A stretch of DNA of 64,000 bases from an uncultured Verrucomicrobiae bacterium (GCA_963702845.1 OY969763.1:2784001-2848000), one strand, 5' to 3'. Counted from the stretch's first letter, positions 7,048 through 64,000 are shown. A program made the numbers and translations. Notes: generated by a model from the letters alone, not told the origin.

Positions 7048-10000
7048 TTACGGGTGGTTTGAGAACACAGCCGTATTGGTCCGTCCAAGCGACATGGTGA
7101 AGGTCAATGGATTGGCCAGTTGATCAGCCAATGGGCCAGTGCTGTCTGACACGGTCCATTTCTGGAAGGTTATGCCTCTGCCGATTGGCGTGGCCTTTAT
7201 TGTGTAATTGTGGCCCACCGCCAGCACCGCTGTGTTGGTCGGGTTGCCCCAGTTCTTCGAGGTCGCATCGGTCACCGAGGTGATCCGGCCAGTCCCGCTG
7301 GTCGCCAGGGTCAGCGCTTGTGGATTGGCAATGAAGAACATGTGCGTGCCCTTCGTGGTCGTGCTCGTGTTGCCGTCCGAGTCCGTCGCCAGGCCCCAGA
7401 AGATGTTGGTTCCATCTACCATGCTCACGTGCGAGAGGAAGAATGCCGGCTTGCCGGCTGCGGTGTTCGTTGCCGTCAGGTCGGTCACCTTCTTCACGAA
7501 TGTCGCCGGGAACACCGCCTGATTGACGGCGTTGCTGACCCAGGCTGACACGATCAAACCTTTATCCACTGCCTTGCCGAGGAAGTCGACATCAGGCGCG
7601 TGATTGGTTCCGGTCGGATCAACTGGAACGTCATTAGTGGTCAACGCGTGTTTGGCTGCCATGTCCGTTGGCTTCAACAAGAGCACCACTTTGGGAACTT
7701 CAGTGTCTTGAGTGACCGTCAGGGAGAGACTGGCTGTGCCACCTGTCGGCGAGTTGTTGCTCACCACGCAGGAGTAGACCGCTGTGTTAGCGGTCTGAAC
7801 ATCCACCAGCGAGTAGGTCGAGGTGGTTGCGCCGCTGATGGCATTGCCGTTCTTGTTCCATTGATAGCTCAGGGTCTGATTGAGCGCACCCTTAGTCACT
7901 TTGGCTACCATGGTGTAGTTGAAACCAGCCAGCAACGTCTTGCTGGGCGGAGCAATTTTCACCAAAGGCGCGTCGTAGACCGTCAGAGTCGCGCTGATGC
8001 TGGTTGCGCCTGAATGGAGCGAGTTGGTCACGGTGCAGTAATAGGAGCCGCCATTGGCCGCGTTAGCTACGTTGTTGATGCTAAGCGTGGCGTTGGTCAC
8101 AGCCGGGATGGTCGCGCTCTTGACCATCTTCTTGGGTGTCGTGGTGCCGTTCTTAACGAAGTACCATTGATAGGTTAACGGGCCAGTTCCACCAGCAGTG
8201 ATGCTGAATGTAATGTTGCTCTTGGTGGTGGCGACCACGTTGACGGGCTGGATGTTGACCGCAGGATCGTTCACGGAGACTACTGCGGCAGTGGTCGATT
8301 GCGTTATGTTATTCGCGGTTACCGCGCAGACGTAGCTGCCACTGTCAGCACCGGTCACATCGGTTTTGCTGTAGATGGCATTGGTTGCACCATCGATGGC
8401 GATGTTGTCCTTGCTCCATTGATAGGTTGCATCCAAGCCAGTCGCAACGACAGTCAATGTAAGAGTCGTGCCAGCGTTGATGGTTTGACCAACTGGCTGC
8501 CCGATAATACCCGGTCCGCACGCGTTAACAGCAACGATAGCTACTGCGCTTGTTACTGAACCGCTGGTTCCAGTCACCACTACGGCGAATCTGCCGGCTG
8601 ATAACGCGTCGACATTAGTGAAACACAAGGTGCTGTTCGTCGCATCTGTGATCGCTGTCCCGTTCGCGTCAGGAGTGAACCATTGATATGTCAGCGCGTC
8701 GGAGCTGGTGGCAACAACGGCAAGGCAGGTGCCTCCGCCGCAATTCACGGTAGTGTTCTGAGGATTCACAACAATGAATGGGTCAATGACAACCAGCGTT
8801 GCGGTCGCGCTTGCTGTGCTGTCGGCATTGTTCGCGGTGACCGTATAACTTCCCGCATCCGAATCCTGCAGGTTGGTGATAGTCAGAGAGGCGGAGGTCG
8901 CACCAACGATGGTGGTGCCGTTATCGGTGACAGGGTTGCCGTCTTTGATCCAGCTATAGGTGAATGGAGCAGTGCCGTTCGCCACGACTGTGAAGACAGT
9001 GGTTTGGGCGAAACCGTTGGTGGCGTTATCCGGGCCGGTTAAAGCAACGGGATCGATAACGGTCAACGACGCAGCGAAGCTGGTCGGCGATCCATCAGGG
9101 CCGGTGACGACGCAGCTATATGCGCCAGTGTCGCCGGATGTCACCGAGGCGATCGTTGTTGATGCCGCAGTTTCGCCGGAAATCGGGTTGTTGTCTTTCA
9201 GCCATTGGTAGGTGAGTCCGGTGCCGATGGCAGTGACACTGAACGTGGCGCTATGACCGGTGGCACGAGTGAGGCTGACAGGATTTGCAGTGATGACAGG
9301 ATCCTGAACGGTGAGGGTCGCGGCTGCCGTGGTGGCGGGAGTACCGGAACCGGAAACGGTACAAGTGAAGGAACCTTCGTCGCCTTGCAACACGCCGTTG
9401 ATGGAGAGCGCGGCTGTGTGGGTGCCAGAATAACTCGCGCCGCTGGCCCCGGCCCCGTCGATCAGAGGTGTTCCGTTAAGGGACCAGGCGTAGGTGAGTG
9501 TTCCGGAGCCAGTCGCAATGCAGGCGAAGCCGATGTTATCACCGGCGTTGGCCGAAACGTTCGCGGGCGATGTCACGACCAGCGGATCGTTGACGGTCAA
9601 TATCGCAGTGCTCGATGCGGAGCTGGCTTCGTTGGTGACGGCAATGGTGTAGCTGCCGTGATCTGCAAAAGCTACACCGGTCAATGTTAAGCTGGGGGTG
9701 CTCGATCCGCTGACGATGCCGCCATCGGTGAGGTTAACACCATTTTTCTTCCACTTGTAGGTGATTGTGCCGCCGCCGGTCGCGGTCGCACTGAAGGTTA
9801 CGGTATCTCCATAGTTTGCAGTAGCGCTCGCCGGAGGGCTGGTGATGGTGACGCCGTCAATCACGGTGAGGGTGGCCGAGTTCGTCACAGAGCTCGGAAT
9901 GGCGTCACTCACGACGACCGTGTAGGTATCGATATCAGCAGCGGAAGCGCCAGTAATGGTCAGCGCGGAGGTGGTTGCACCGACGATATTGCCGCCATTG

Positions 10001-54616: not shown

Positions 54617-55406
54617 CCAGCTCGAACGACGGCACCAGCTCGAACTTCAACGTCACCGGCGACGCTGCCCGCAACGCTTCGCGCATCTTCTCCTCATCCG
54701 CAAACGTGTTCAGCAAATGCCGCCCTTCGCACACGATCTGCAATGGCTCCTCAGAACGAAACGGCCACGGATCAAACCGAACCACATGACCATCCCGGAT
54801 GCTCATCGTCAGATTCATTTGTCCGGCGGCACACGGCACATTTTCAATCACTCGCTCCTCTTCAAAACCGATACACAACGACAGCGATATCCAATCCCAC
54901 ACCGACACTAACCGCGCGTTGCGATCAATGTTTTCGTCCGCCGCCCATTCGCCATAATAAAAATCATTCTGCAACGAAGTCACCAGTGTTCGCTGCCGTT
55001 CTTCCTGGTCGCGCAAAAATTTCTTTTCCAATTCGAACTCACGCGGGGAATTGAATTTCCGACGCCCATCACAGAGGTGGGTAAAATGGAGCGACACCAA
55101 CAGCGCCGGATACCGCCCATACCGCATCATCTTCTGAATACTCTTATGCCACAGTGCCAGCCTGGCTTCGGTCGGCAGTTCCAGAAATGAATACGGCAAG
55201 CCGGTTTTGGCATTAAGCGTCGGCGAATGTTCCCAGTTTAAGTAACCGATATCATGAAGAGCTGCCGCGATGTAAACATCCGCATCCGGTTCAAACGTGC
55301 CAAACGTGTCATTTCCCCAACGGCGCGCAACCTGTCCGGCGACCCATGCGTGAGCCGGTTGACTGATAACAACGATCCCCTCCTCCTCATGCACCCGGTG
55401 CAACAT
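54600..55406 (-). CDS. DUF3891 family protein
   Basis: ISQPAHAWVAGQVA..WGN, ALHDIG, LLVSLH, WDWISL.LC, DPWPF; start 55406 or 55421. Confidence 0.85.
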   Translation of the reverse strand: MLHRVHEEEGIVVISQPAHAWVAGQVARRWGNDTFGTFEPDADVYIAAALHDIGYLNWEHSPTLNAKTGLPYSFLELPTEARLALWHKSIQKMMRYGRYPALLVSLHFTHLCDGRRKFNSPREFELEKKFLRDQEERQRTLVTSLQNDFYYGEWAADENIDRNARLVSVWDWISLSLCIGFEEERVIENVPCAAGQMNLTMSIRDGHVVRFDPWPFRSEEPLQIVCEGRHLLNTFADEEKMREALRAASPVTLKFELVPSFELAISAA

Positions 55407-55565
55407 GATGAAACGTAGCACAACCCCACCATTTCGCTTTTCGGGCGTGCGGGCTGCGAGGCCGACGTTCGGCTCCCGGCCGCAGCAACGTCAAGAGCAC
55501 CCCTGGTTACGAATTACCTCAACGCTCCTCCACAAAGTCATCAAAAACCGCCAAAAAATAAATTT

Positions 55566-55592
55566 TCACTTGGACAGCCTTTGTCCAAGTGA
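55566..55592. promoter_or_regulatory. Second copy of palindrome TCACTTGGAC-N7-GTCCAAGTGA
   Basis: Identical arms and spacer length to 32442-32468; 18 nt before ATG 55611. Confidence 0.75.
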
Positions 55593-55610
55593 CCTTGCTA
55601 ACCTCGCCCC

Positions 55611-55847
55611 ATGAAAATTGAAATATCCGAAGTATTCGTGCTCCACACCGACTCCATCAACACCGAGGCAACACCCGCACCTATCGGCATAGCCGCCCTC
55701 GAACCTCGCACAAGTCCGGTCGGCACCAACACCAAATCCCGCCGATTTCCGGCTTTTGCCGCTTTATCCCGCTTTTTCTCACTAAAACTAAAAAGATGTT
55801 ATGCCACCCACGATCGCTCCTTCCAAATCGGCGTGACAAACCCGTGA
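55611..55847 (+). CDS. Small hypothetical protein
   Basis: 78 aa ORF between the palindrome and a periodic repeat; no recognisable motif. Confidence 0.35.
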   Translation: MKIEISEVFVLHTDSINTEATPAPIGIAALEPRTSPVGTNTKSRRFPAFAALSRFFSLKLKRCYATHDRSFQIGVTNP

Positions 55848-55860
55848 CAGAATCGCGCTT

Positions 55861-55910
55861 CATGACGCTCCATAACGGTTCATAACGCCTCATAACGGCT
55901 TATAACGGTT
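55861..55910 (+). repeat. 5 x 10-bp periodic repeat CATAACGnnn followed by T/A tracts
   Basis: catgacgctc cataacggtt cataacgcct cataacggct tataacggtt gtttttaaaaaaa. Confidence 0.88.
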
Positions 55911-55964
55911 GTTTTTAAAAAAATAAAATTTTCGAATTCGTGCCCCGACGCATACAGTTGACTC

Positions 55965-57218
55965 GTGCAGTATCAACCCAGCACATGGGCGATGATCCCA
56001 TTTGGAATCGTTCTAATGGCAATTGCCATTGGCCCGACGCTCTTCCATGCCTGGTGGAACAAACACTATTCCAAAGTCACGCTATCGCTTGCTGCGATCA
56101 CATTGGCATACTACCTGTTCGCCGTTCCAAGCGGGATAACCACCGTCTTCCATACCGCTCACGAATACTTCGGCTTCATCGCGCTCATCGGCTCGCTCTA
56201 CGTCGTTTCCGGCGGCATCCACATCCACGTAGGCCGCGAGGCCACCCCCGCCTTGAACGTTCTCTTCCTCTTCATCGGCGCAGTGCTTGCGAATATCCTG
56301 GGCACAACCGGTGCCTCGATGTTGCTCATTCGGCCGTGGCTGCGCATGAACCAACATCGGGCCGCGACCCATCACGTCGTGTTTTTCATTTTTATAGTCG
56401 CGAACATCGGCGGCTGTCTCACGCCCATCGGCGATCCTCCGCTCTTCCTCGGTTATTTGAAAGGCGTGCCCTTCTGGTGGGTAGTCCAAAAATGCTGGCC
56501 CATGTGGCTGATTGGAGTCGGCTTCCTGCTCGCAATCTTCTACGTGTTCGACCGCCGCAACTACGCGAAGGTAGGGCGCGTCGCTCCGCGCGCGCCGAAA
56601 CTGCCGCACGAAACAGACAAATGGAAATTCGAAGGCTTGGCCAACCTGGCCTGTCTGACCGTCGTTCTGGCTGGAGTGTTCGTCTCCAAACCCCTGCTCC
56701 TGCGCGAAACCATCATGATCGCCGCCGCCTTGGTCTCCTGGGTCACAACCAGGAAATCCGTCCACGACGCCAACCACTTCAACTGGCATCCGGTGATCGA
56801 AGTCGTCATCCTTTTCGCCGCCATCTTTTCCACCATGATGCCCGTCCTCGACTGGCTGCGTCTCAATGCCCACAACGTCTTCGGTTCCCCGCATGTTGGA
56901 ACATATTATTGGGTCAGTGGTTTGCTCTCCGGGGTGCTCGACAATGCCCCCACCTACCTGGCCTTCTTCACCATGATCTTCGGCGGCACCTATCCAGTCG
57001 GAGACCATCTGGATGTGTTTCTCGAAGCCATCAGCGTCGGCGCAGTTTTCTTCGGCGCAGCCACCTACATTGGCAACGGCCCCAATTTCATGGTGCGTTC
57101 GATCGCCATGCATCAAAAGGCCCCCGGCCCAACCTTCTTCGGCTACATCATAAAATGGGCCCTGCCCATCCTCGGACCATTGTTCGCGCTGCTCTGGTTT
57201 CTGTTCTTCCGCTCGTAG
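55965..57218 (+). CDS. Putative sodium:proton antiporter / IT-superfamily transporter
   Basis: GTTGASMLLIRP, ANIGGCLTPIGDPPLFLG, LDNAPTY, TYIGNGPNFMV. Confidence 0.9.
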   Translation: MQYQPSTWAMIPFGIVLMAIAIGPTLFHAWWNKHYSKVTLSLAAITLAYYLFAVPSGITTVFHTAHEYFGFIALIGSLYVVSGGIHIHVGREATPALNVLFLFIGAVLANILGTTGASMLLIRPWLRMNQHRAATHHVVFFIFIVANIGGCLTPIGDPPLFLGYLKGVPFWWVVQKCWPMWLIGVGFLLAIFYVFDRRNYAKVGRVAPRAPKLPHETDKWKFEGLANLACLTVVLAGVFVSKPLLLRETIMIAAALVSWVTTRKSVHDANHFNWHPVIEVVILFAAIFSTMMPVLDWLRLNAHNVFGSPHVGTYYWVSGLLSGVLDNAPTYLAFFTMIFGGTYPVGDHLDVFLEAISVGAVFFGAATYIGNGPNFMVRSIAMHQKAPGPTFFGYIIKWALPILGPLFALLWFLFFRS

Positions 57219-57235
57219 CCGCCGACGCAATCCAA

Positions 57236-58015
57236 TTACACGTAACCGAGGCGTTTCATCGCCGTCCCGTGATTTGCCATGAATTCCGCCTGCATCGATC
57301 CAGTGAAATAACTGCTGTAATCTGTACCTCCCTCGCGGATAAACATTTTATTTTTTTCCGTAGGGTTAAGGCCGCGACGAGGTTGGGCCGCATCCAATTT
57401 CGACATATTCTCGAAGCTGCATTGCTCCACGGCTTTTTCTATTCGGGCGAGGTCCACAGGAATTTTGCTGAAGACGCACATCCGGATGAGTTCGCCAACC
57501 GGGTTGAGCACCAAATCTTCGTAACGAACGAGCAGAAAGCGAGCGGGCGCGTGATCAATCCAGGAATTGAGGTGGTCGCTCCATCGTCCGTAACCTACGT
57601 TGCCCTGATTGAAGGTGAGCAGGAATTGCTCGAACGTGCTGTCTTCGCTGATTTGTTTGTTCCGGCGATGAAAATGGAAATACGACACAGCCACTTCCCG
57701 GACATTGCGCACCAGGTAGATGACGTTCTGCATTTCCGAACAGTAAGAGAAATGGCTTTTGATGAAGCGCGGCCGCGATTTGAGTTGCTTGATCGATTCG
57801 GGCCGCTCATGCATATCCGGCATGATGTCGTGGACGCTGAAGAAATCGACTTTGCTGCCGGAAAGGTAACTAGCGATCAGAAATCGCAACCAGGTATTGC
57901 CGGAGCGTGGATAGGAAACGAGAAAAACATCATCATCCGCCGAAGTGAACGGCAACGTGGAATTGCGCTTACTGACGGTTTTCGGCCAGAGCTTTTCGGT
58001 AAACTTCAAAGGCAT
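57236..58015 (-). CDS. Sulfotransferase
   Basis: 5'-PSB SYPRSGNTW, IKSH, YLVRN.R.VAVS, RYEDL, FIREG. Confidence 0.9.
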   Translation of the reverse strand: MPLKFTEKLWPKTVSKRNSTLPFTSADDDVFLVSYPRSGNTWLRFLIASYLSGSKVDFFSVHDIMPDMHERPESIKQLKSRPRFIKSHFSYCSEMQNVIYLVRNVREVAVSYFHFHRRNKQISEDSTFEQFLLTFNQGNVGYGRWSDHLNSWIDHAPARFLLVRYEDLVLNPVGELIRMCVFSKIPVDLARIEKAVEQCSFENMSKLDAAQPRRGLNPTEKNKMFIREGGTDYSSYFTGSMQAEFMANHGTAMKRLGYV

Positions 58016-58347
58016 AGCGAAACGTTGTTAAACTGTTCATCTCGCTCCTTTGGTTGCGGCGACGACATCGCCTTTATTGCACGCAAACCCTGTACAGTTC
58101 TGCGCACTAAGAGGAACGCTTTTTTGTTAGCTGCCAACAATATTGGCGAGCTTGGGACTTTTGTAGTGTCTTCCCTCTCACTCGTCAAGCTTTTCCCTCT
58201 CATTTTCAATGGGGTATACCTCACATTCCTCAACTCACCACAAATGTCAGTTCGAGCTATTGAAACAAACCCGTTTCAAAACCGCGTCCACCCCATTGCG
58301 TTGTCCCTCGACTCTAAAAGCCTTTCCGGCCAAAATGAACGAAAGCC

Positions 58348-59544
58348 ATGAATCGTCGGTTGTTGTTGTATTTATCCCTAGCTTGCAATGTTAGCCTCGT
58401 CGTTTTTTTTGGTGTTCGACACTACGATTCAAAGCCAATTCAATCGCCAGCGGAACATCAAGGAACAAACCTCGCGGCCGCATCCACCCTTTCGAAAGTA
58501 ATCCGATTAAATTGGCAATCGGTGGAAACGTCGGATTACAGGCAATACATTCGTAATCTGCGTGCGATCGGGTGCCCGGAGGAAACGGTTTATGACATCA
58601 TCGTTGCAGACGTAAACACCCTTTATGCACTTCGCTTGAAGACCGCAGACTCCGCCGCTCCCTGGCGATATTGGGATGCGGAAGATGAGATCGTTTCGCG
58701 CGAGGAGACCGCCCATCAACGGATGCGACGCGATTTAGAAAAAGAAAAGACGGCTTTGATTAAAAACCTTCTCGGAGCCGATGCCGTCGAGCGGATGAAA
58801 AAATATCAGCTTTGGGGCGGAGAAGAAAACGTCAATCGCAAGCTGGCGTTTTTGCCCGAGGAAAAGCGAGAGTCGCTCAAAGCGCTTCAGCAGCGGTATT
58901 ACGAAATGGAGCAAGAGGCCATGGAATGGGACGCGAACAGCGTATTGACTGATCGCAGCCGCGAAAAAATCATCGAGTTGCGCAAGGTAGAGGATGCAGA
59001 ACTGCGCGCCCAACTTTCGCCGACGGAGCTACAGGAATATGATTTTCGCTTTTCGGAAACGGCTTCGCACCTGCGCCGCGAACTGAATGGGTTCCATCCC
59101 ACGGAACAGGAATTTCGCCAGCTGTATGAATTGCGCAAAACTTACGAGCAGCAGATGGGCGCGAGCCTTGATGTCAGTGATCCAAACGTCATCAAGGCGC
59201 GCGAGGAAAACGAACAACGGCTCGTTCAGCGCGGTAAAGAAATTCTGGGCGAATCGCGCCACGCGGAATTCGTTCGTTCGCAGGACGTGGATTACCAGAA
59301 CGCGTTGCGGCTAACGAAATACATGAATTTGCCTGAAACCGCCGCGGCCGAAGTTTACACGCTCAAGCAACAACAGGACGCTGAAGTTACCAAACTGCGC
59401 AGCAATCCTGACGCTGACGAGGAACAACGCCTCAGACTATTTTTCAATCTCCAGCAAGAGGGTGATGCGCGCTTGCAGCAAATTCTTGGACCTCAGGGCT
59501 TCGATACCTATCGCCAAAACAATCGTTGGTGGATGCGCAATTAA
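58348..59544 (+). CDS. Membrane-anchored helical hypothetical protein
   Basis: N-terminal TM, WQSVETSDYRQYIRNLRAIGCPEET, helical repeats. Confidence 0.8.
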   Translation: MNRRLLLYLSLACNVSLVVFFGVRHYDSKPIQSPAEHQGTNLAAASTLSKVIRLNWQSVETSDYRQYIRNLRAIGCPEETVYDIIVADVNTLYALRLKTADSAAPWRYWDAEDEIVSREETAHQRMRRDLEKEKTALIKNLLGADAVERMKKYQLWGGEENVNRKLAFLPEEKRESLKALQQRYYEMEQEAMEWDANSVLTDRSREKIIELRKVEDAELRAQLSPTELQEYDFRFSETASHLRRELNGFHPTEQEFRQLYELRKTYEQQMGASLDVSDPNVIKAREENEQRLVQRGKEILGESRHAEFVRSQDVDYQNALRLTKYMNLPETAAAEVYTLKQQQDAEVTKLRSNPDADEEQRLRLFFNLQQEGDARLQQILGPQGFDTYRQNNRWWMRN

Positions 59545-59571
59545 AAACCCGGCGTTGTTGAACGCCGGGTT
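59543..59571 (-). terminator. Intrinsic terminator between convergent genes
   Basis: AACCCGGCGTT-gttg-AACGCCGGGTT with T run on minus strand. Confidence 0.8.
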
Positions 59572-59601
59572 GCTCAAGTTCGAGCTGGAGATGCGGTCAG
59601 C

Positions 59602-60414
59602 TTACAGGTTATCAACCTTCGCTTCAATCACGGATTGAATGCTCGAAGGCACCGCCGAAAAGAAATTGTAACCGGTCCACGATTCGATCTGGTTTACGGA
59701 CGTGCGGTAGTTCTTCCAGTTGGCCGAGCGGATACCGCTGTTATTCGGGATGTCCACGGCAATCAGACGGGTGGAGGTGGTCACACGTGAAACGTCACTG
59801 GAACCATTTGGCAAGACCATGATGACCTTCCAAGTCGAGGTGGGGACCAGCACTCGTCCGCTATCGATGGTGGCTTTGGAACCGCGTCCACCGCTGATGA
59901 TATAAAGTTCATTTCCCGCCGAAACGAGGGATCGGCAATAATCTTCCAATACAGCCCACGGCCCCTGGTTATTGTCCGGGGTCTGCGGCACGATGTTCGA
60001 CATATAAAACGTCGCGGCATTGTCGGTCGAACTGGCGGTGCGGTCAGCCGAAGGGCACATATGTCCGCGATCATAGCCGCTGCTGGTGTAACTGCCAGTG
60101 GTCACATGATACCATGCTGATGGCAAATTCGAGTCAGACTTGAAACAATCGCAACGCGCGGCACTTCCTAAATCCAGCGGTCCAAGATGCCAGCTCACCC
60201 AATTCGGCACGCCATGGTCACGATGATAAGAATGCGCATATTGCGGCTTGGACATCAGATAATTGGAGGGGAAGTTAACATCGGTGGTCGCTCCACTCGG
60301 ATTTCCCATGGTGAGTTGAACGCTGGCGGTGGACTGGGCGACTACCGCGCTGGCGGTGAGCAGCAGCAGACAGGCTGTAGCTGCAATACGGCGGGTGAGG
60401 TTATTTTTCGACAT
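59602..60414 (-). CDS. Secreted DNA/RNA non-specific endonuclease (NucA-like)
   Basis: GNPSGA, PNWVSWHL, YDRGHMCPSADR, TFYMSNIVPQ, NNQGPW. Confidence 0.93.
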   Translation of the reverse strand: MSKNNLTRRIAATACLLLLTASAVVAQSTASVQLTMGNPSGATTDVNFPSNYLMSKPQYAHSYHRDHGVPNWVSWHLGPLDLGSAARCDCFKSDSNLPSAWYHVTTGSYTSSGYDRGHMCPSADRTASSTDNAATFYMSNIVPQTPDNNQGPWAVLEDYCRSLVSAGNELYIISGGRGSKATIDSGRVLVPTSTWKVIMVLPNGSSDVSRVTTSTRLIAVDIPNNSGIRSANWKNYRTSVNQIESWTGYNFFSAVPSSIQSVIEAKVDNL

Positions 60415-60885
60415 AGGCTTTTTTGATTTTTTGGTTTAAGTGCCGAGGGTCGACTGCGATTGTTAAAGAACCAAAGAAGGGCTGTCAACCGGTTTCGCTC
60501 TGGCGCTCGTTTTAATTTCCAAAGCTCAACAAACAATTAAAGATGGAAAGCGACGGAAGGGACGAACTGAAATCAATCGCACGATGAAGCTGGATCCGTT
60601 GCCAATGCGCTGCTGACGATTCTATGGGCGGGTTTCTTCCGCTCGTAGCCGCCAACGTAAGGCGGCGGATTATTTCGACGTCGCAATTCGCTGCGTTTCA
60701 CGGTTGTTCAACGTCCGGTGAACACGCAGACAATCACCCTGCTTTATGACTTCTTCTGGCACCAAGTAGCGAAATCACTACTTAGCGCAAATAGATTCAC
60801 GATTGACCCGCATCAAAGACGCCTCTGTCAAACAATGTCACACTCGCAAAAAGCACTGGGATGCGTCGGGCTCTCGGCGAGAAAG

Positions 60886-61018
60886 ATACAGAATCCCCCT
60901 CAATGACTTGAGGCGGAGGCGTCGGCGGGTTAACGACAAAGTCGCGAAACGACACAATCTCCGGCAAAGGCTGCGGCACAGCGCCAAGATCAACCGCAAT
61001 GTCAATTTGCTCGCTCAT
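60886..61018 (-). pseudogene. 5' fragment of probable AAA/RepA-type (AAA_25-like) helicase, truncated
   Basis: MSEQIDIAVDLGAVPQPLPEIVSFRDFVVNPPTPPPQVIEG(ILY) resembles the lead-in to the P-loop of primase-associated helicases; no Walker A remains. Confidence 0.5.
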
Positions 61019-61038
61019 TCAAAGCACCTGCCTACCCT

Positions 61039-61716
61039 GTGAGCGTGGAACGCCGATGGAAAATTGCGCTTGCAGTCGTTGCGACTGCCGCGATTTCTGC
61101 CGCCGTTCTCCTGACAATCAGGAATGACGAGCCCACATACCAAGGCCGCAGGCTCTCTGAGTGGGTTATCGACGTCAGCACCTATCACTTCGGCATTAGA
61201 ACCAACGTGGCTGAAGGGAGCGTGCCGGTTGAGGCTGTCCTTGCAATAGGAACAAATGCTCTGCCATGGATGGTCAACTGGATTGCCTCCGAACCGACTG
61301 GACAATATGCCCAGTTGCGATGGGAGATTCCGGTGCTCAGCAAGCTCGCGGTACGCGAGACCGCCCTCGTAAGGGGATCGCGCGATATGCTCAATCACTA
61401 TGAGACCAACACAGATCCCGCTGTTCCTTTGATAACCGAACAATTGCAACGCTTGCAACCGTCGCCTGCCGTCGAAGAGCTGGGCTACACACTTCTCAGT
61501 ATCGGGTCCCCCGCCGCGGTAGCAGCACTCTGCAATTGTATCACGAACACGAAAATGTCCGTCGATAATCGGCTGCTCCTGATCTACGAGCTTGAAACGC
61601 ACTGGAGTGTGAGTGATCGCGATATGAACATGGAGGTGGCGTTGACTAACTGCCTTGCCGACCCAATGCCGGAAATTAGGGGAGCAGCTCAAAGATGTCT
61701 GCGGGCCCGCCAGTAG
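61039..61716 (+). CDS. Array cargo 1: membrane-anchored HEAT-like repeat protein
   Basis: RRWKIA-TM-EPTYQGRRLSEW, IGTNALP, LADPMPEIRGAA; start 61039 or 61045. Confidence 0.8.
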   Translation: MSVERRWKIALAVVATAAISAAVLLTIRNDEPTYQGRRLSEWVIDVSTYHFGIRTNVAEGSVPVEAVLAIGTNALPWMVNWIASEPTGQYAQLRWEIPVLSKLAVRETALVRGSRDMLNHYETNTDPAVPLITEQLQRLQPSPAVEELGYTLLSIGSPAAVAALCNCITNTKMSVDNRLLLIYELETHWSVSDRDMNMEVALTNCLADPMPEIRGAAQRCLRARQ

Positions 61717-61769
61717 GCACCACAGTCCACCGATTGAACGAATTTCTTGTTCGGTTGAGTTCATTGAAC

Positions 61770-61878
61770 CCTCAACCCAACGAGTTTCTGCAGCCGTCCA
61801 TCCCTGAAAGCCCCCGGGACACGGACCGCTTGTCGCCACAGCGCCAAGATCAACCGCAATGTCAATTTGCTCGCTCAT
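61770..61878. repeat. Hybrid junction repeat: primase 3' end copy (61770-61833) fused to helicase 5' start copy (61834-61878)
   Basis: Matches 63830-63893 and 60977-61018. Confidence 0.9.
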
Positions 61879-61882
61879 TCCG

Positions 61883-62128
61883 TCATTTCACTCGCCACAA
61901 GCGCAAGTAGCGCCAATCGGGTTGTTGTTTGACACGAAGCTTCCAACCATTGCGCCGGCACGTCGCATAAATGTTCGGCATCGGCGGCTCGCACAGCAGC
62001 ACGCTGTCGCCGATTTCCATGCTCCGGATCAGCGTTGCCCATTTCGCGCCACGGGCCCAACGGTTGCCCACGGGTTTTGTGGGCGGGAGTGGAATGCTCT
62101 TGTCGATTTTGAACTCAGTCTCACTCAT
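61883..62128 (-). CDS. Small phage-type putative DNA-binding protein
   Basis: FKIDKSIPLP...MEIGDS...LRLWRVK pattern; flanked by 12-bp direct repeat GCTCGCTCATTC. Confidence 0.7.
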   Translation of the reverse strand: MSETEFKIDKSIPLPPTKPVGNRWARGAKWATLIRSMEIGDSVLLCEPPMPNIYATCRRNGWKLRVKQQPDWRYLRLWRVK

Positions 62129-62168
62129 AGTCATTTTCGCTCGCTCATTCAAAGCACCTGCCTACTCT

Positions 62169-62876
62169 GTGTACGTGAAGCGTCAGTGGAAAATTGCGAT
62201 TGCTGGTGCGGCGCTGATTGCAATCGTCGCCGCTATCAAGCTGACCGGCTCCGAACCGGAATACAAAGGCCGCAAACTTTCGGAGTGGATATCTGAGTGC
62301 AAGTACGCTTATTCGGAGGCACAGCCGAAGGAAGCCGCCCAAGCATTGCGTGAAATGTGCCCAACCGCTCTTCCGACACTTGTCGATTGGATAGGTTATG
62401 AAAAGTCGGATCAAACCAAGCGTGTGGAGAACTTCATCTGGGAGATTGCCGAGAAACTTGGCGTGGGAGCAAAGTTCGACCTTATGACGCGAAAAGGAGA
62501 AAACCGTGTAAACACGGCCTTCGACGCGTTCGAGGTCCTCGGGACAAATGCGGCGCCTGCCATTCCACAACTCTCGAATATGGTTATGAATGCAAACAAT
62601 CCCGGTACCGCCGCCAGTCGTGCGCTCTCGGCCCTTGCGTTGATTGGAAAATCGGGAAAACAAACGATTGTCTCGCTGCTGCACGATGCAAACAACCCCC
62701 ACCGCTCGCAAACTCTGGACGGCTTGTTTTACTTTTCTGTCGTGGATCGCGACACTCTCATAAAAGAAATCAACCAACACCTGACAAATTCCGACGTACA
62801 AACGCGCACAACCGCTACCAATCTTTTGCAATCTTTGCGCAAAGTGGAGAAGATGCGCAAATCGGCCGCGCAATAA
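62169..62876 (+). CDS. Array cargo 2: membrane-anchored HEAT-like repeat protein
   Basis: RQWKIA-TM-EPEYKGRKLSEW, ALPTLVDWI, LGTNAAPAIPQL; start 62169 or 62175. Confidence 0.82.
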   Translation: MYVKRQWKIAIAGAALIAIVAAIKLTGSEPEYKGRKLSEWISECKYAYSEAQPKEAAQALREMCPTALPTLVDWIGYEKSDQTKRVENFIWEIAEKLGVGAKFDLMTRKGENRVNTAFDAFEVLGTNAAPAIPQLSNMVMNANNPGTAASRALSALALIGKSGKQTIVSLLHDANNPHRSQTLDGLFYFSVVDRDTLIKEINQHLTNSDVQTRTTATNLLQSLRKVEKMRKSAAQ

Positions 62877-62920
62877 CCGCACAAAACTGTTTGTCTCCGT
62901 TCTCATCCGTAATTTCACTC

Positions 62921-63029
62921 CCTCAACCAAACGAGTCTCTGCAGCCGCCCATCCCTGAAAGCCCCAGGAACACGAACCAGTTGCCGCCACAGCACCAAGA
63001 TCAACCGCAATGTCAATTTGCTCGCTCAT
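62921..63029. repeat. Second hybrid junction repeat: primase 3' end copy (62921-62984) fused to helicase 5' start copy (62985-63029)
   Basis: Same length and fusion point as 61770-61878. Confidence 0.9.
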
Positions 63030-63049
63030 TCAACGCACCTGCCTACTCT

Positions 63050-63757
63050 GTGAACGTGAAACGACGGTGGAAAATTGCGATTGCCGCAGCAGCGCTGATT
63101 GCCATTGTCGCTTCGCTTGAATTGGCAACGCGCGATCCCGAACCGAGTTACCACGGTCGCACGCTTTCGGAATGGGTTTCTGCTTACAAACCGCTGTACT
63201 TCTCTGCTCGTCGGAACGAAGACCTCAACAGCGCAAGAACAAGCGAAGTCGGGCAGGCGTTGCGCGAGATGAATCCAGCCGCGCTTCCCACTCTCGTTGA
63301 GTGGATTGGCTATGAAATACCCACTTCCCCGCCTTATTTCGAATACGCTGTGTCTCGCGTCTTTGGATACGACAGCAGGTTGTACGCAATGATAACCAAG
63401 AAAAAGGCACGCATCTGGGAAACGGTGATAGCCTTCGATGCACTCGGAACGAATGCGTCTCCCGCGATCCCACAGCTCACGACTATGGTCATCAACTCCA
63501 AGCATCCTGACTCTGCTCGGCCTGCGCTTGAGGCTATGGCAGCGATCGGCAAACCTGGAATGCAAGCGATGGTCGCGCTCCTTCACAATCCGAACAACCC
63601 CTATCGGGAAGTCACTTTGGATAGACTTAAGTTGTGTGCTTCTATTGATCAAAAAACGGTGACAGACGAGGTTCGGCAGAGCCTGACTGATGCTGATCCG
63701 CATATGCGTAGCACCGCCCGGTTCGTATTGTACTGTCTCGAGCATTCCTCGCATTGA
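63050..63757 (+). CDS. Array cargo 3: membrane-anchored HEAT-like repeat protein
   Basis: RRWKIA-TM-EPSYHGRTLSEW, ALPTLVEWI, LGTNASPAIPQL, LTDADPHMR; start 63050 or 63056. Confidence 0.82.
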   Translation: MNVKRRWKIAIAAAALIAIVASLELATRDPEPSYHGRTLSEWVSAYKPLYFSARRNEDLNSARTSEVGQALREMNPAALPTLVEWIGYEIPTSPPYFEYAVSRVFGYDSRLYAMITKKKARIWETVIAFDALGTNASPAIPQLTTMVINSKHPDSARPALEAMAAIGKPGMQAMVALLHNPNNPYREVTLDRLKLCASIDQKTVTDEVRQSLTDADPHMRSTARFVLYCLEHSSH

Positions 63758-63823
63758 CGGCTCGTTTGTCTGATGTGAAGCAGCGTTCATCTGTGGTTTG
63801 TTTCGATTCATCGTGGCCGTCTG

Positions 63824-64000
63824 CTAAGACCTCAACCAAACGAGTTTCTGTAGCCGTCCGTCCCTGAAAGCCCCAGGCACACGGACCGGTTGCGAATACG
63901 TAAAAACTTTCGGATCACACCCAAACACCTCGAGCGCGGCCTTCAATCGCCCCTCGTGCAAACGAGTGCGCGGCGCATCAAACCACGCGTGCAAAGATTT
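63824..64000 (-). CDS. 3' part of probable primase (AEP/RepB-like), enters from beyond the window
   Basis: Manual translation KSLHAWFDAPRTRLHEGRLKAALEVFGCDPKVFTYSQPVRVPGAFRDGRLQKLVWLRS*; SLHAWF, D and RVPG fit AEP-type motifs. Not in ORF track. Confidence 0.65.
   Translation of the reverse strand, partial: KSLHAWFDAPRTRLHEGRLKAALEVFGCDPKVFTYSQPVRVPGAFRDGRLQKLVWLRS

Follow-up and report, generated by a model that had tools for sequence, protein, structure and literature searches.

Near the end of a 64,000-nucleotide (nt) stretch from an uncultured Verrucomicrobiae bacterium (GCA_963702845.1 OY969763.1), which we analysed at its full length and refer to as the window (G000:C1:2784001-2848000, where G000 is the window's own genome, a single contig of 6.03 Mb), lies a prophage relic of approximately 3.2 kb that contains three very different copies of a cargo gene, c1, c2 and c3, joined by scars built from the end of a primase-like gene and the start of a helicase gene. 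The cargo genes are read on the plus strand and the core-gene remnants on the minus strand, with a helicase stump at the left end of the array, a primase-like stump at the right end, and two junctions, J_a and J_b, between successive cargos (Table 1). A preliminary description made from the sequence alone had drawn attention to the three diverged plus-strand paralogs, and to two 109-bp hybrid spacers in which helicase start and primase end are fused at the same point, and we find both observations to be correct.

A repeat search pairs the two regions that span the junctions, 61769-61880 and 62920-63031, at 91% identity across 112 nt, and both are composed of the same parts. On the plus strand the left half of each junction matches the end of the minus-strand primase-like frame, a 63-nt piece of which occurs three times (at 61770, 62921 and 63830, with 87–90% identity), the copy at 63830-63892 being the end of that frame itself; the right half matches the first 45 nt of the minus-strand frame starting at 61018, and copies of this helicase-start piece lie at 60974, 61834 and 62985. 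The units are arranged head to tail, with the internal junctions joining the end of one unit to the start of the next in the same way at both boundaries. At the joint, the helicase sequence runs from its ATG to GCTGTG (nt 42-45) and is followed by GCG and then by primase sequence, ...CAAC/CGGTCCGTG..., such that the primase part of both junctions starts ...CAAC/CGG, 64 nt ahead of the primase stop. The parental sequences at this point are CCGCAGCC and TCGCAACC, which agree in six of eight positions, have CGCA in common, and correspond to the Gln-Pro (Q-P) codons at which the preliminary description had placed the fusion. The joint is not clean, there being one extra base, and the GCG found in both junctions is present in neither parent. 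The single shared breakpoint shows that the hybrid junction was made once; since the GCG absent from the parents is shared as well, J_a and J_b descend from one event.

Querying the entire genome with the 109-nt junction yields seven places with E values from 3e-51 to 3e-11, so the repeat is not a chance resemblance. The scars differ by 9–13%, and they are 90–93% identical to the intact primase-like and helicase genes of a second element at 132 kb in G000. An assembly artefact was considered and rejected, on the grounds that 10 of 112 positions distinguish the junction copies and that the genome consists of one contig. One DNA sequencing run (share 0.05) yielded three contigs of 151–250 nt, which cover the conserved parts only and span no joints.

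Table 1. Features of the cassette array, in window coordinates unless marked G000 (aa, amino acids; ORF, open reading frame).
Feature	Position	Strand	Remarks
Helicase 5' stump (AAA_25)	60897..61018	-	41 homologous codons; blastn match to the intact G000 gene (132859-133884) ends at 60897
Cargo c1, 225 aa	61039..61716	+	N-terminal hydrophobic helix and alpha-helical body; lineage distinct from c2 and c3
Junction J_a	61770..61878	-	last 64 nt of primase (61770-61833) joined to first 45 nt of helicase (61834-61878)
Fourth cassette, 270-nt insert in unit 2	61869..62150	-	between 12-nt direct repeats of the helicase start (61869-61880, 62139-62150)
83-aa ORF of the fourth cassette	61883-62134	-	read from the sequence
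Cargo c2, 235 aa	62169..62876	+	putative membrane-anchored HEAT-family protein
Junction J_b	62921..63029	-	primase end (62921-62984) joined to helicase start (62985-63029); breakpoint as in J_a
Cargo c3, 235 aa	63050..63757	+	N-terminal helix (residues 3-26) and ARM/HEAT-like solenoid
Primase-like gene, 3' stump	63824..64000, on to ~64108 past the window	-	~95 codons in all
Intact-element cargo (cA/cB set)	G000 132161-132838	opposite to core genes	single cargo of the 132-kb element

The conserved zone extends approximately 45 nt past the 109-nt junction, through a 20-nt spacer and about the first 25 nt of each cargo gene. Along the aligned units identity is 75–94% in the first ~90 columns (helicase start, 20-nt spacer, and first 25 nt of the cargo), 25–60% in the cargo body, and 85–95% in the last 64 nt. 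The three cargo proteins share 28–45% identity, c2 and c3 being 45% identical and c1 sharing 28–31% with the other two. In the cargo bodies the proportion of synonymous differences (pS) is 0.62–0.81 and thus saturated, and the ratio of nonsynonymous to synonymous divergence (dN/dS) is 0.18–0.52 (Nei-Gojobori); the cargo alleles are therefore old and under purifying selection, rather than the products of recent adaptive divergence. Set against the 9–13% by which the scars differ, these values support the original statement that the junctions are far more conserved than the cargo. The proposed unit of primase end, cargo, and helicase start survives in part: the cassettes are so bounded, but unit 2 holds a fourth insert and the conserved zone is longer by the ~45 nt noted above.

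A tree built from 24 members of the family, without two short or doubtful rows, places c2 and c3 in one clade with cA and cB, the single cargos of the two other G000 loci (support 88/88), with c1 located elsewhere, and none of 200 bootstrap trees unites c1, c2, and c3. The c2 protein is 51% identical to the cargo of a locus at 4.827 Mb and 46% identical to that at 132 kb, and the closest relative of c1 is 81% identical. A simple recent local duplication, part of what the preliminary description had named as fatal to its own proposal, does not account for the array, because the alleles of the cargo by far predate the junctions; the position of c1 outside the c2/c3 clade points the same way. A more elaborate version is an old tandem triplication in place, in which the copies diverged under purifying selection and the junctions were homogenised by conversion or unequal crossover (concerted evolution). 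The breakpoint common to J_a and J_b and the grouping of c2 and c3 with the single-copy cargos elsewhere in G000 are in keeping with this, and conversion is visible between two cargo loci, as the cargos at 132161-132838 and 4827129-4827845 are 98% alike over ~100 nt at their 5′ ends (pS 0.08 for the first 30 codons) and ~50–78% alike beyond; this tract is a recent conversion or crossover between two G000 prophages at the conserved 5′ part. Against triplication stand the bootstrap trees and the placement of c1, and the similarity of the scars both to the intact 132-kb genes and to sequences of another species (88–100%), which would require conversion across loci and genomes.

The preliminary description favored a different process, in which a circle of ~1.1 kb comprising primase end, cargo, and helicase start loops out at the microhomology and re-inserts in tandem, in the manner of an integron without attC or integrase. 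The unit structure and the identical internal junctions are as a re-inserted circle would leave them, and the greater age of the cargo alleles relative to the junctions also fits. However, the junctions contain no structured site: a repeat search found four pairs of inverted repeats, none of them within a junction, and the junctions folded as single-stranded DNA on either strand do no better than 200 shuffles (z scores of 0.58, −0.66, 1.59, and 0.78). There is also no recombinase near the array, and a microhomology of four bases is too short for circles to form repeatedly and precisely. Neither IntI nor attI is seen among the ORFs within ~8 kb, no genome-wide search with an IntI model having been run. 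Two defining features of integrons, IntI with attI and attC, were thus looked for and are lacking, and the locus is therefore not an integron.

The flanking genes had been presented as a primase gene ending at 63824 and a helicase gene starting at 61018, and while their homology is as proposed (an AAA_25 helicase and a phage primase-like gene), both are only stumps. In a blastn comparison of the locus with the intact element at 131–134 kb, matches are confined to 63808-64108 (93.4%) and 60897-61164 (77%); the primase stump in the first of these corresponds to 132116-131815 of the intact 354-aa gene, and no frame continues the primase past 64000, where the full gene had been anticipated. The open frame of the helicase stump runs on to 60797 through unrelated sequence. 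Family matches of the ORFs within ~8 kb on either side reveal no other phage gene and no recombinase, for which the preliminary description had advised looking beyond the window; these ORFs encode a CitMHS_2 transporter, a sulfotransferase, an Endonuclease_NS protein, and a DUF1559/N_methyl protein, or match no family. Because both flanking genes are stumps and their neighbors are ordinary chromosomal genes, the locus is what decay has left of a temperate phage and not the working replication module that it was initially taken to be. GC content across the island is flat (0.50–0.55), and clear orthologs of the window flanks are lacking both in G015, another genome from the same genus, and in G014. 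The DUF1559/N_methyl gene abutting the primase stump (G000 2848118-2848877, or 64118-64877 on the window scale) is present as two overlapping frames of 178 and 103 aa and may be frameshifted.

Several other features of the array were recorded. The 83-aa ORF of the fourth cassette has no relatives in G000 or in loci L008, L009, and L018-L041, and in the Atlas gives a mere lead to viral hypothetical proteins (0.89). Long antisense frames of 261–294 aa pass through each cargo on the minus strand and end at the helicase ATG (61015-61878, 62145-63029, and 63026-63811); similar frames lie opposite the cargo genes of L008, L017, and L026-L028 and opposite other genes of the window, and their appearance is that of shadow frames on a GC-rich coding strand, not of genes. 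An Rfam scan gives no match in the array, a scan for terminators finds three terminator-like sites where 5.2 are expected, and there are no tRNA genes in 55000-64000. With regard to a diversity-generating retroelement, which would need a matching template repeat and a reverse transcriptase, a blastn search with 60301-64700 finds no extra copies of cargo parts in G000 besides those at the two prophage loci, no search for a reverse transcriptase having been run.

The intact prophage from which the organization of the relic can be understood (G000 131035-136018) contains, in order, the 354-aa primase-like gene, one cargo, a 341-aa AAA_25 helicase gene, terS (phrog_6299), and terL (phrog_979). Assignment of the helicase (132859-133884) is straightforward, with an E value of 1.6e-28 to AAA_25 and an additional match to the C-terminal half of phrog_2597. 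The primase-like protein has no match of its own in Pfam, PHROG, NCBIfam, or PDB sequence searches; a paralog whose own match is to the N-terminal half of phrog_2597 ('DNA primase') aligns with it at 26% identity across 122 residues (E 6e-8), and the structural model of the primase-like protein, with a predicted local distance difference test score (pLDDT) of 75.2, has Prim-Pol/AEP domains as its top fold matches, but these are weak (7nqf, E 4e-3; 7p9j, probability 0.97; template modelling (TM) scores 0.24–0.39). Identification of the flanking gene as a primase is thus moderately supported, by distant sequence similarity and a predicted fold. The third locus, at 4.827 Mb, has a different primase/helicase pair followed by cargo, a helicase stump of ~56 codons, terS, and terL. 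Its replication module (G000 4824766-4828186; L009 4766-8186) is of another type, with a primase matching the N-terminal half of phrog_2597 and its own AAA_25 helicase, and the prophage retains the cargo and the 56-codon stump of the first-type helicase ahead of terS; it is a module replacement that spared the cargo.

What the cargo genes encode is indicated by sequence matches and by modelling. HEAT_2 is matched by cA with 27.8 bits against a cut-off of 27.7 and by relatives in L027 and L028 with 40–50 bits; c3 scores 25.4 bits (1.7e-5), below the cut-off, and c1 and c2 are without Pfam matches. The model of c3 (pLDDT 91.9) is an all-alpha solenoid with a helix at residues 3-26 behind basic residues; its best Foldseek match is a designed armadillo repeat protein (E 8e-4), and the armadillo matches have a probability of 1.0 but TM scores of only 0.27–0.36. 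In the Atlas, c3 falls with HEAT clusters of Verrucomicrobiota (0.97). The cargo family is therefore predicted to combine an N-terminal membrane helix with HEAT/ARM repeats, and its members can be placed in that class. Searches with five proteins yield no NCBIfam families, and PADLOC has no model for nine of ten proteins (from the window, the 132-kb element of G000, L024, L036, and L038), the tenth, a cargo of L027, being a weak match to HEAT-ARM_XIII.

Using tblastn with five cargo proteins, we find the family at approximately 12 places in G000, and phage genes adjoin family members at seven of nine examined places outside the relic (the paralogs at ~4.276 and ~4.314 Mb are not among the nine). 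These places include the single-cargo prophage loci at 132 kb and 4.827 Mb. Elsewhere, two tandem family copies are located between portal (phrog_145) and scaffold (phrog_206) genes (G000 1734070-1735992; L043 5070-6992), two family places at ~2305931-2306908 adjoin terL and portal genes, and a member at 2593526-2594644 adjoins terL and terS. Our guess would be that the cargo acts at the cell envelope on behalf of the phage or the lysogen, for example in the exclusion of other phages.

To place the relic among its relatives we used the helicase as a probe, which gave 23 loci among species-representative genomes; in viral contigs a single helicase protein gave nothing, and a helicase alignment gave 43. 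Slot size, defined as the distance from the primase stop to the helicase start, was determined for 27 elements in which both genes occur, made up of L008, 20 loci from genomes, and 6 from viral contigs; the survey omits L037, L039, and L041 (primase missing or cut), L018 (a possible double count), L009 (the other replication module), and L052-L088 (distant, with another primase type or none). Gene order is the same in all 27, with primase and helicase usually accompanied by terS and terL. The slot is no more than 35 nt in 13 of the 27, five of which have genes overlapping by 4 or 8 nt, it is 81 nt in one, and it is 259–2455 nt in the remaining 13. Seven of the 13 filled slots contain members of the HEAT family on the opposite strand (eight genes); the others contain an HNH endonuclease together with a PP-binding membrane protein (two), an LRR_5 protein (one), or small or unknown ORFs (three). 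The HNH genes (L024 4887-5207 and L040 4875-5210, both on the plus strand; phrog_1571, E values 2.7e-21 and 1.9e-22) lie directly 3′ of the primase stop, and their neighbor on the opposite strand encodes the membrane protein, with its PP-binding (acyl carrier) domain. The phage family is widespread in Verrucomicrobiota, with primase-like and helicase genes that normally abut or overlap. Because the slot is empty, 81 nt, or filled with varied cargo among these elements, that is, a fixed site between syntenic core genes with empty and filled states and unrelated cargos among relatives, the primase/helicase boundary is an accessory-gene (moron) hotspot of the phage family. The preliminary description was therefore right that an intergenic slot of a phage replication module accumulates cargo, and its integron-like reading of how this occurs is not supported.

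Multi-cargo slots with duplicated core-gene ends recur in several genomes, which favors both the circle and, in the case of one array, the triplication. In the intact element L027, two HEAT cargos that are 28% identical are separated by a ~24-nt copy of the helicase start, without a primase piece. In L036, a 246-nt repeat (92.7%) starting 48 nt before the primase stop is present on both sides of unrelated cargos. A contig of G015 (G015:C102, 4254 nt) carries three cargos, the first two of which are 25% identical; one junction consists of 240 nt of primase, an interspersed repeat, and 163 nt of helicase, and in its short junction 42 nt of helicase are fused in frame to the last 45 nt of primase, with the helicase breakpoint as in G000 and a primase side 27 nt shorter. 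The interspersed repeat that flanks the G015 helicase stumps (L017 1328-1447, 1630-1680, and 2877-2996) has dozens of copies in G000; a different repeat element, absent from G000, follows the primase stop in L036. As DNA, the 109-nt junction has matches in G000 and G015 only, among 31 genomes of the family, and the 41-codon helicase start is found in 16 of 401 genomes of the order.

These arrays bear on both alternatives introduced above. The helicase end shared by the G000 and G015 junctions, and a remodelling of the G015 array that is explicable by crossovers between scars, are additional points for an old triplication, but a duplication cannot give rise to a primase-end repeat flanking unrelated cargos, as in L036, and on balance we regard triplication as unlikely. 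The end points vary between arrays (10–12, ~24, or 42–45 nt of helicase, and 0, 45, 48, or 64 nt of primase), a variation that fits illegitimate and homologous recombination and not a site-specific step, and thus counts against a circle that closes at a defined point. Relics elsewhere have flanks of 123–290 nt, more than the 45 plus 64 nt that a circle would carry, and so did not come from such circles, and a junction-spanning pattern (the helicase-start anchor, 8–38 free bases, and the primase-end anchor) has no matches in either metagenome contigs or viral contigs. The circle, whose own junction would be identical in sequence to the array junction, is a formal equivalent of unequal crossover without support of its own, and we consider it highly improbable.

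An isolated relic is also present in a third genome, G122 (contig C23; L115 8306-9639), one of the 16 genomes with the helicase start, and contains primase residues 258-353, one HEAT cargo (8705-9337, minus strand), and helicase residues 3-85. The relic occupies all of the space between fpg-like and purB-like genes, which in relatives where both are found are on different contigs, and there is no other phage gene within the 18 kb around it. Three genomes, those of the window, G015, and G122, thus retain just this module, with its primase end, cargo, and helicase start. Between the window and G122, the starting points of the primase stumps differ by no more than ~10 nt, both being in the region coding for FLVLESD (residues ~258-261), and helicase homology ends within ~6 nt, at the P-loop codons 54-56 (GGTS), in G015 (L017 ~1703), at the 4.827-Mb locus (G000 ~4828030; L009 ~8030), and in L041 (~4690), where the loss is an internal deletion and homology resumes at about residue 237.

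Taking these observations together, we favor an explanation, to which we give a probability of roughly 0.7, in which the relic derives from a phage accessory-gene hotspot where one microhomology crossover was followed by unequal homologous crossovers that stacked diverged alleles, and then by decay of the prophage. In the first step, a single illegitimate crossover at CGCA between misaligned phage genomes carrying different cargo alleles would have generated the hybrid junction, at nt 42-45 of the helicase and nt −64 of the primase. Alleles would then have been added or swapped, and the fourth cassette brought in, by conversion or unequal homologous crossovers, with homology provided by the junction, both core-gene ends (helicase start and primase end), and the cargo 5′ end; this swapping was not itself seen, and is suggested by the mosaic pattern of identity together with the saturated synonymous divergence. 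Finally, deletions would have removed the remainder of the prophage, sparing the cargo genes, and a loss of this kind is shown by the stumps and their ordinary chromosomal neighbors. The order of these events is what we infer from the array. As the start codon of the cargo is only 20 nt from the helicase ATG, its expression signals may well lie within the first helicase codons, in which case every cassette that stays expressed would keep a helicase-start piece.

There are several points on which this explanation does less well. A consensus promoter scan finds nothing in the junctions. No near-identical donor allele was found for c1, c2, or c3, in a search made with c1 alone, for which the best match is the 81% relative; searching the metagenome contigs with c1 did not bring up that relative but a single distant locus, 42% identical over 66 residues. 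Comparing G000 with G015, stumps and scars are 88–100% identical and chromosomal orthologs 75–89%, and neutral scars inherited vertically should be less conserved than genes. The helicase breakpoint common to the G000 junction and the short G015 junction is odd for independent random events, and may reflect one old junction kept alike by conversion rather than a recent assembly. Lastly, the clustering of relic end points in the window, G122, G015, the 4.827-Mb locus, and L041 is not predicted by plain random decay; convergent trimming to what cargo expression needs, or a nuclease cutting at conserved sites, are possible causes.

The latter possibility can be developed into an explanation of its own, in which breaks at the primase FLVLESD and helicase P-loop sites are repaired from a co-infecting genome, co-converting the whole module and sometimes pasting it elsewhere. 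The cutters could be free-standing HNH enzymes like those in the L024 and L040 slots, and the clustered end points, together with the HNH genes that immediately follow the primase in two of the 13 filled slots, would be consistent with this. However, no HNH gene is present at the slot in the elements of G000 itself, the clustering rests on two events at the primase site and three at the helicase site, and there is no known cleavage site. HNH genes that neighbor terminase genes commonly function in packaging, which also weighs against such a role, and we think this form of transfer very unlikely. A broader formulation, in which the boundary is an active exchange site where breaks made by a slot-borne HNH enzyme or by another nuclease move the module between co-infecting phages and occasionally into chromosomes, is doubtful but somewhat less so; if true, it would explain the stacked arrays, the common helicase breakpoint in two species, the near-identical flanks around very old alleles, and the isolated cargo relics, with their clustered end points, in three genomes.

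The hotspot reading invites comparison with other systems that accumulate genes. Hendrix, Juhala and colleagues reportedly described moron accretion, with novel joints at gene boundaries, in lambdoid phages. Lambdoid morons are single genes with their own orientation and expression signals between core genes, whose entry is thought to be illegitimate, with selection trimming the joints to gene boundaries. The cargos described here are similarly single genes with their own orientation between core genes, but their joints are untrimmed, with duplicated scars of 45 nt and 64 nt still left from the core genes. Like integron arrays, the relic has a row of single-gene cassettes with short conserved junctions and cargo that is more diverse than the junctions; unlike them, it has no IntI or attI within ~8 kb and no attC hairpin, the boundaries differ between arrays, and each cassette probably has its own promoter.

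Tandem paralogs with a short, highly conserved segment are also found in the lpl cluster of Staphylococcus aureus, where, according to the accessible part of Tsuru and Kobayashi 2008 (PMC2568036), the segment is the site of homologous recombination, the variable parts are shuffled, and copy number changes. As portrayed there, the lpl segment lies inside each ORF and the cluster is in a chromosomal island, whereas the junction here is formed from two phage core genes and the cargo 5′ end. HEAT-repeat immunity proteins of polymorphic toxin systems are listed for Verrucomicrobia in the accessible text of Zhang et al. 2012 (PMC3482391), and as far as polyimmunity loci are characterized in that text, they too are tandem and comprise strongly diverged repeat-protein genes; the loci considered here differ in having no toxin gene nearby, an N-terminal membrane helix, and phage genes adjoining seven of the nine examined places in G000. 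Among the best-known accessory-gene hotspots, in the available sections of two reports, are those of phages of the P2 type and P4-like satellites (PMC9122126, PMC13586616). Judged by those sections, the slot resembles them in being a fixed site between core genes whose cargo is present, absent, or different in close relatives and turns over faster than the backbone. It differs, by the same comparison, in host phylum and phage family, in lying inside the replication module, and in cargo that, apart from the weak L027 match, lacks a PADLOC defence model; and in the present case the scars directly record unequal crossover, with cassettes stacked in tandem. The best reading is that accessory genes piled up at one phage hotspot by unequal recombination and not through an integron-like machine, and on present evidence the locus is not a new kind of mobile element.

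How cargo enters and becomes stacked is still open even for the best-studied phage hotspots, and the 2026 study of P2 and P4, in the part available, leaves the mechanism of exchange undecided between homologous recombination through flanking genes and illegitimate recombination, naming both only as possibilities (PMC13586616). In the array described here the joints were not trimmed and the scars therefore record the mechanism, which would be one microhomology crossover between flanking core genes followed by homology-driven reshuffling, among alleles whose divergence at synonymous sites is ten or more times that of the scars. The locus further draws attention to a large and unstudied family of membrane-anchored HEAT-repeat proteins, and because its members in G000 are mostly phage-adjacent and three genomes have kept one after loss of the phage, this family may reasonably be considered for a function in lysogen benefit or phage exclusion among Verrucomicrobiota.

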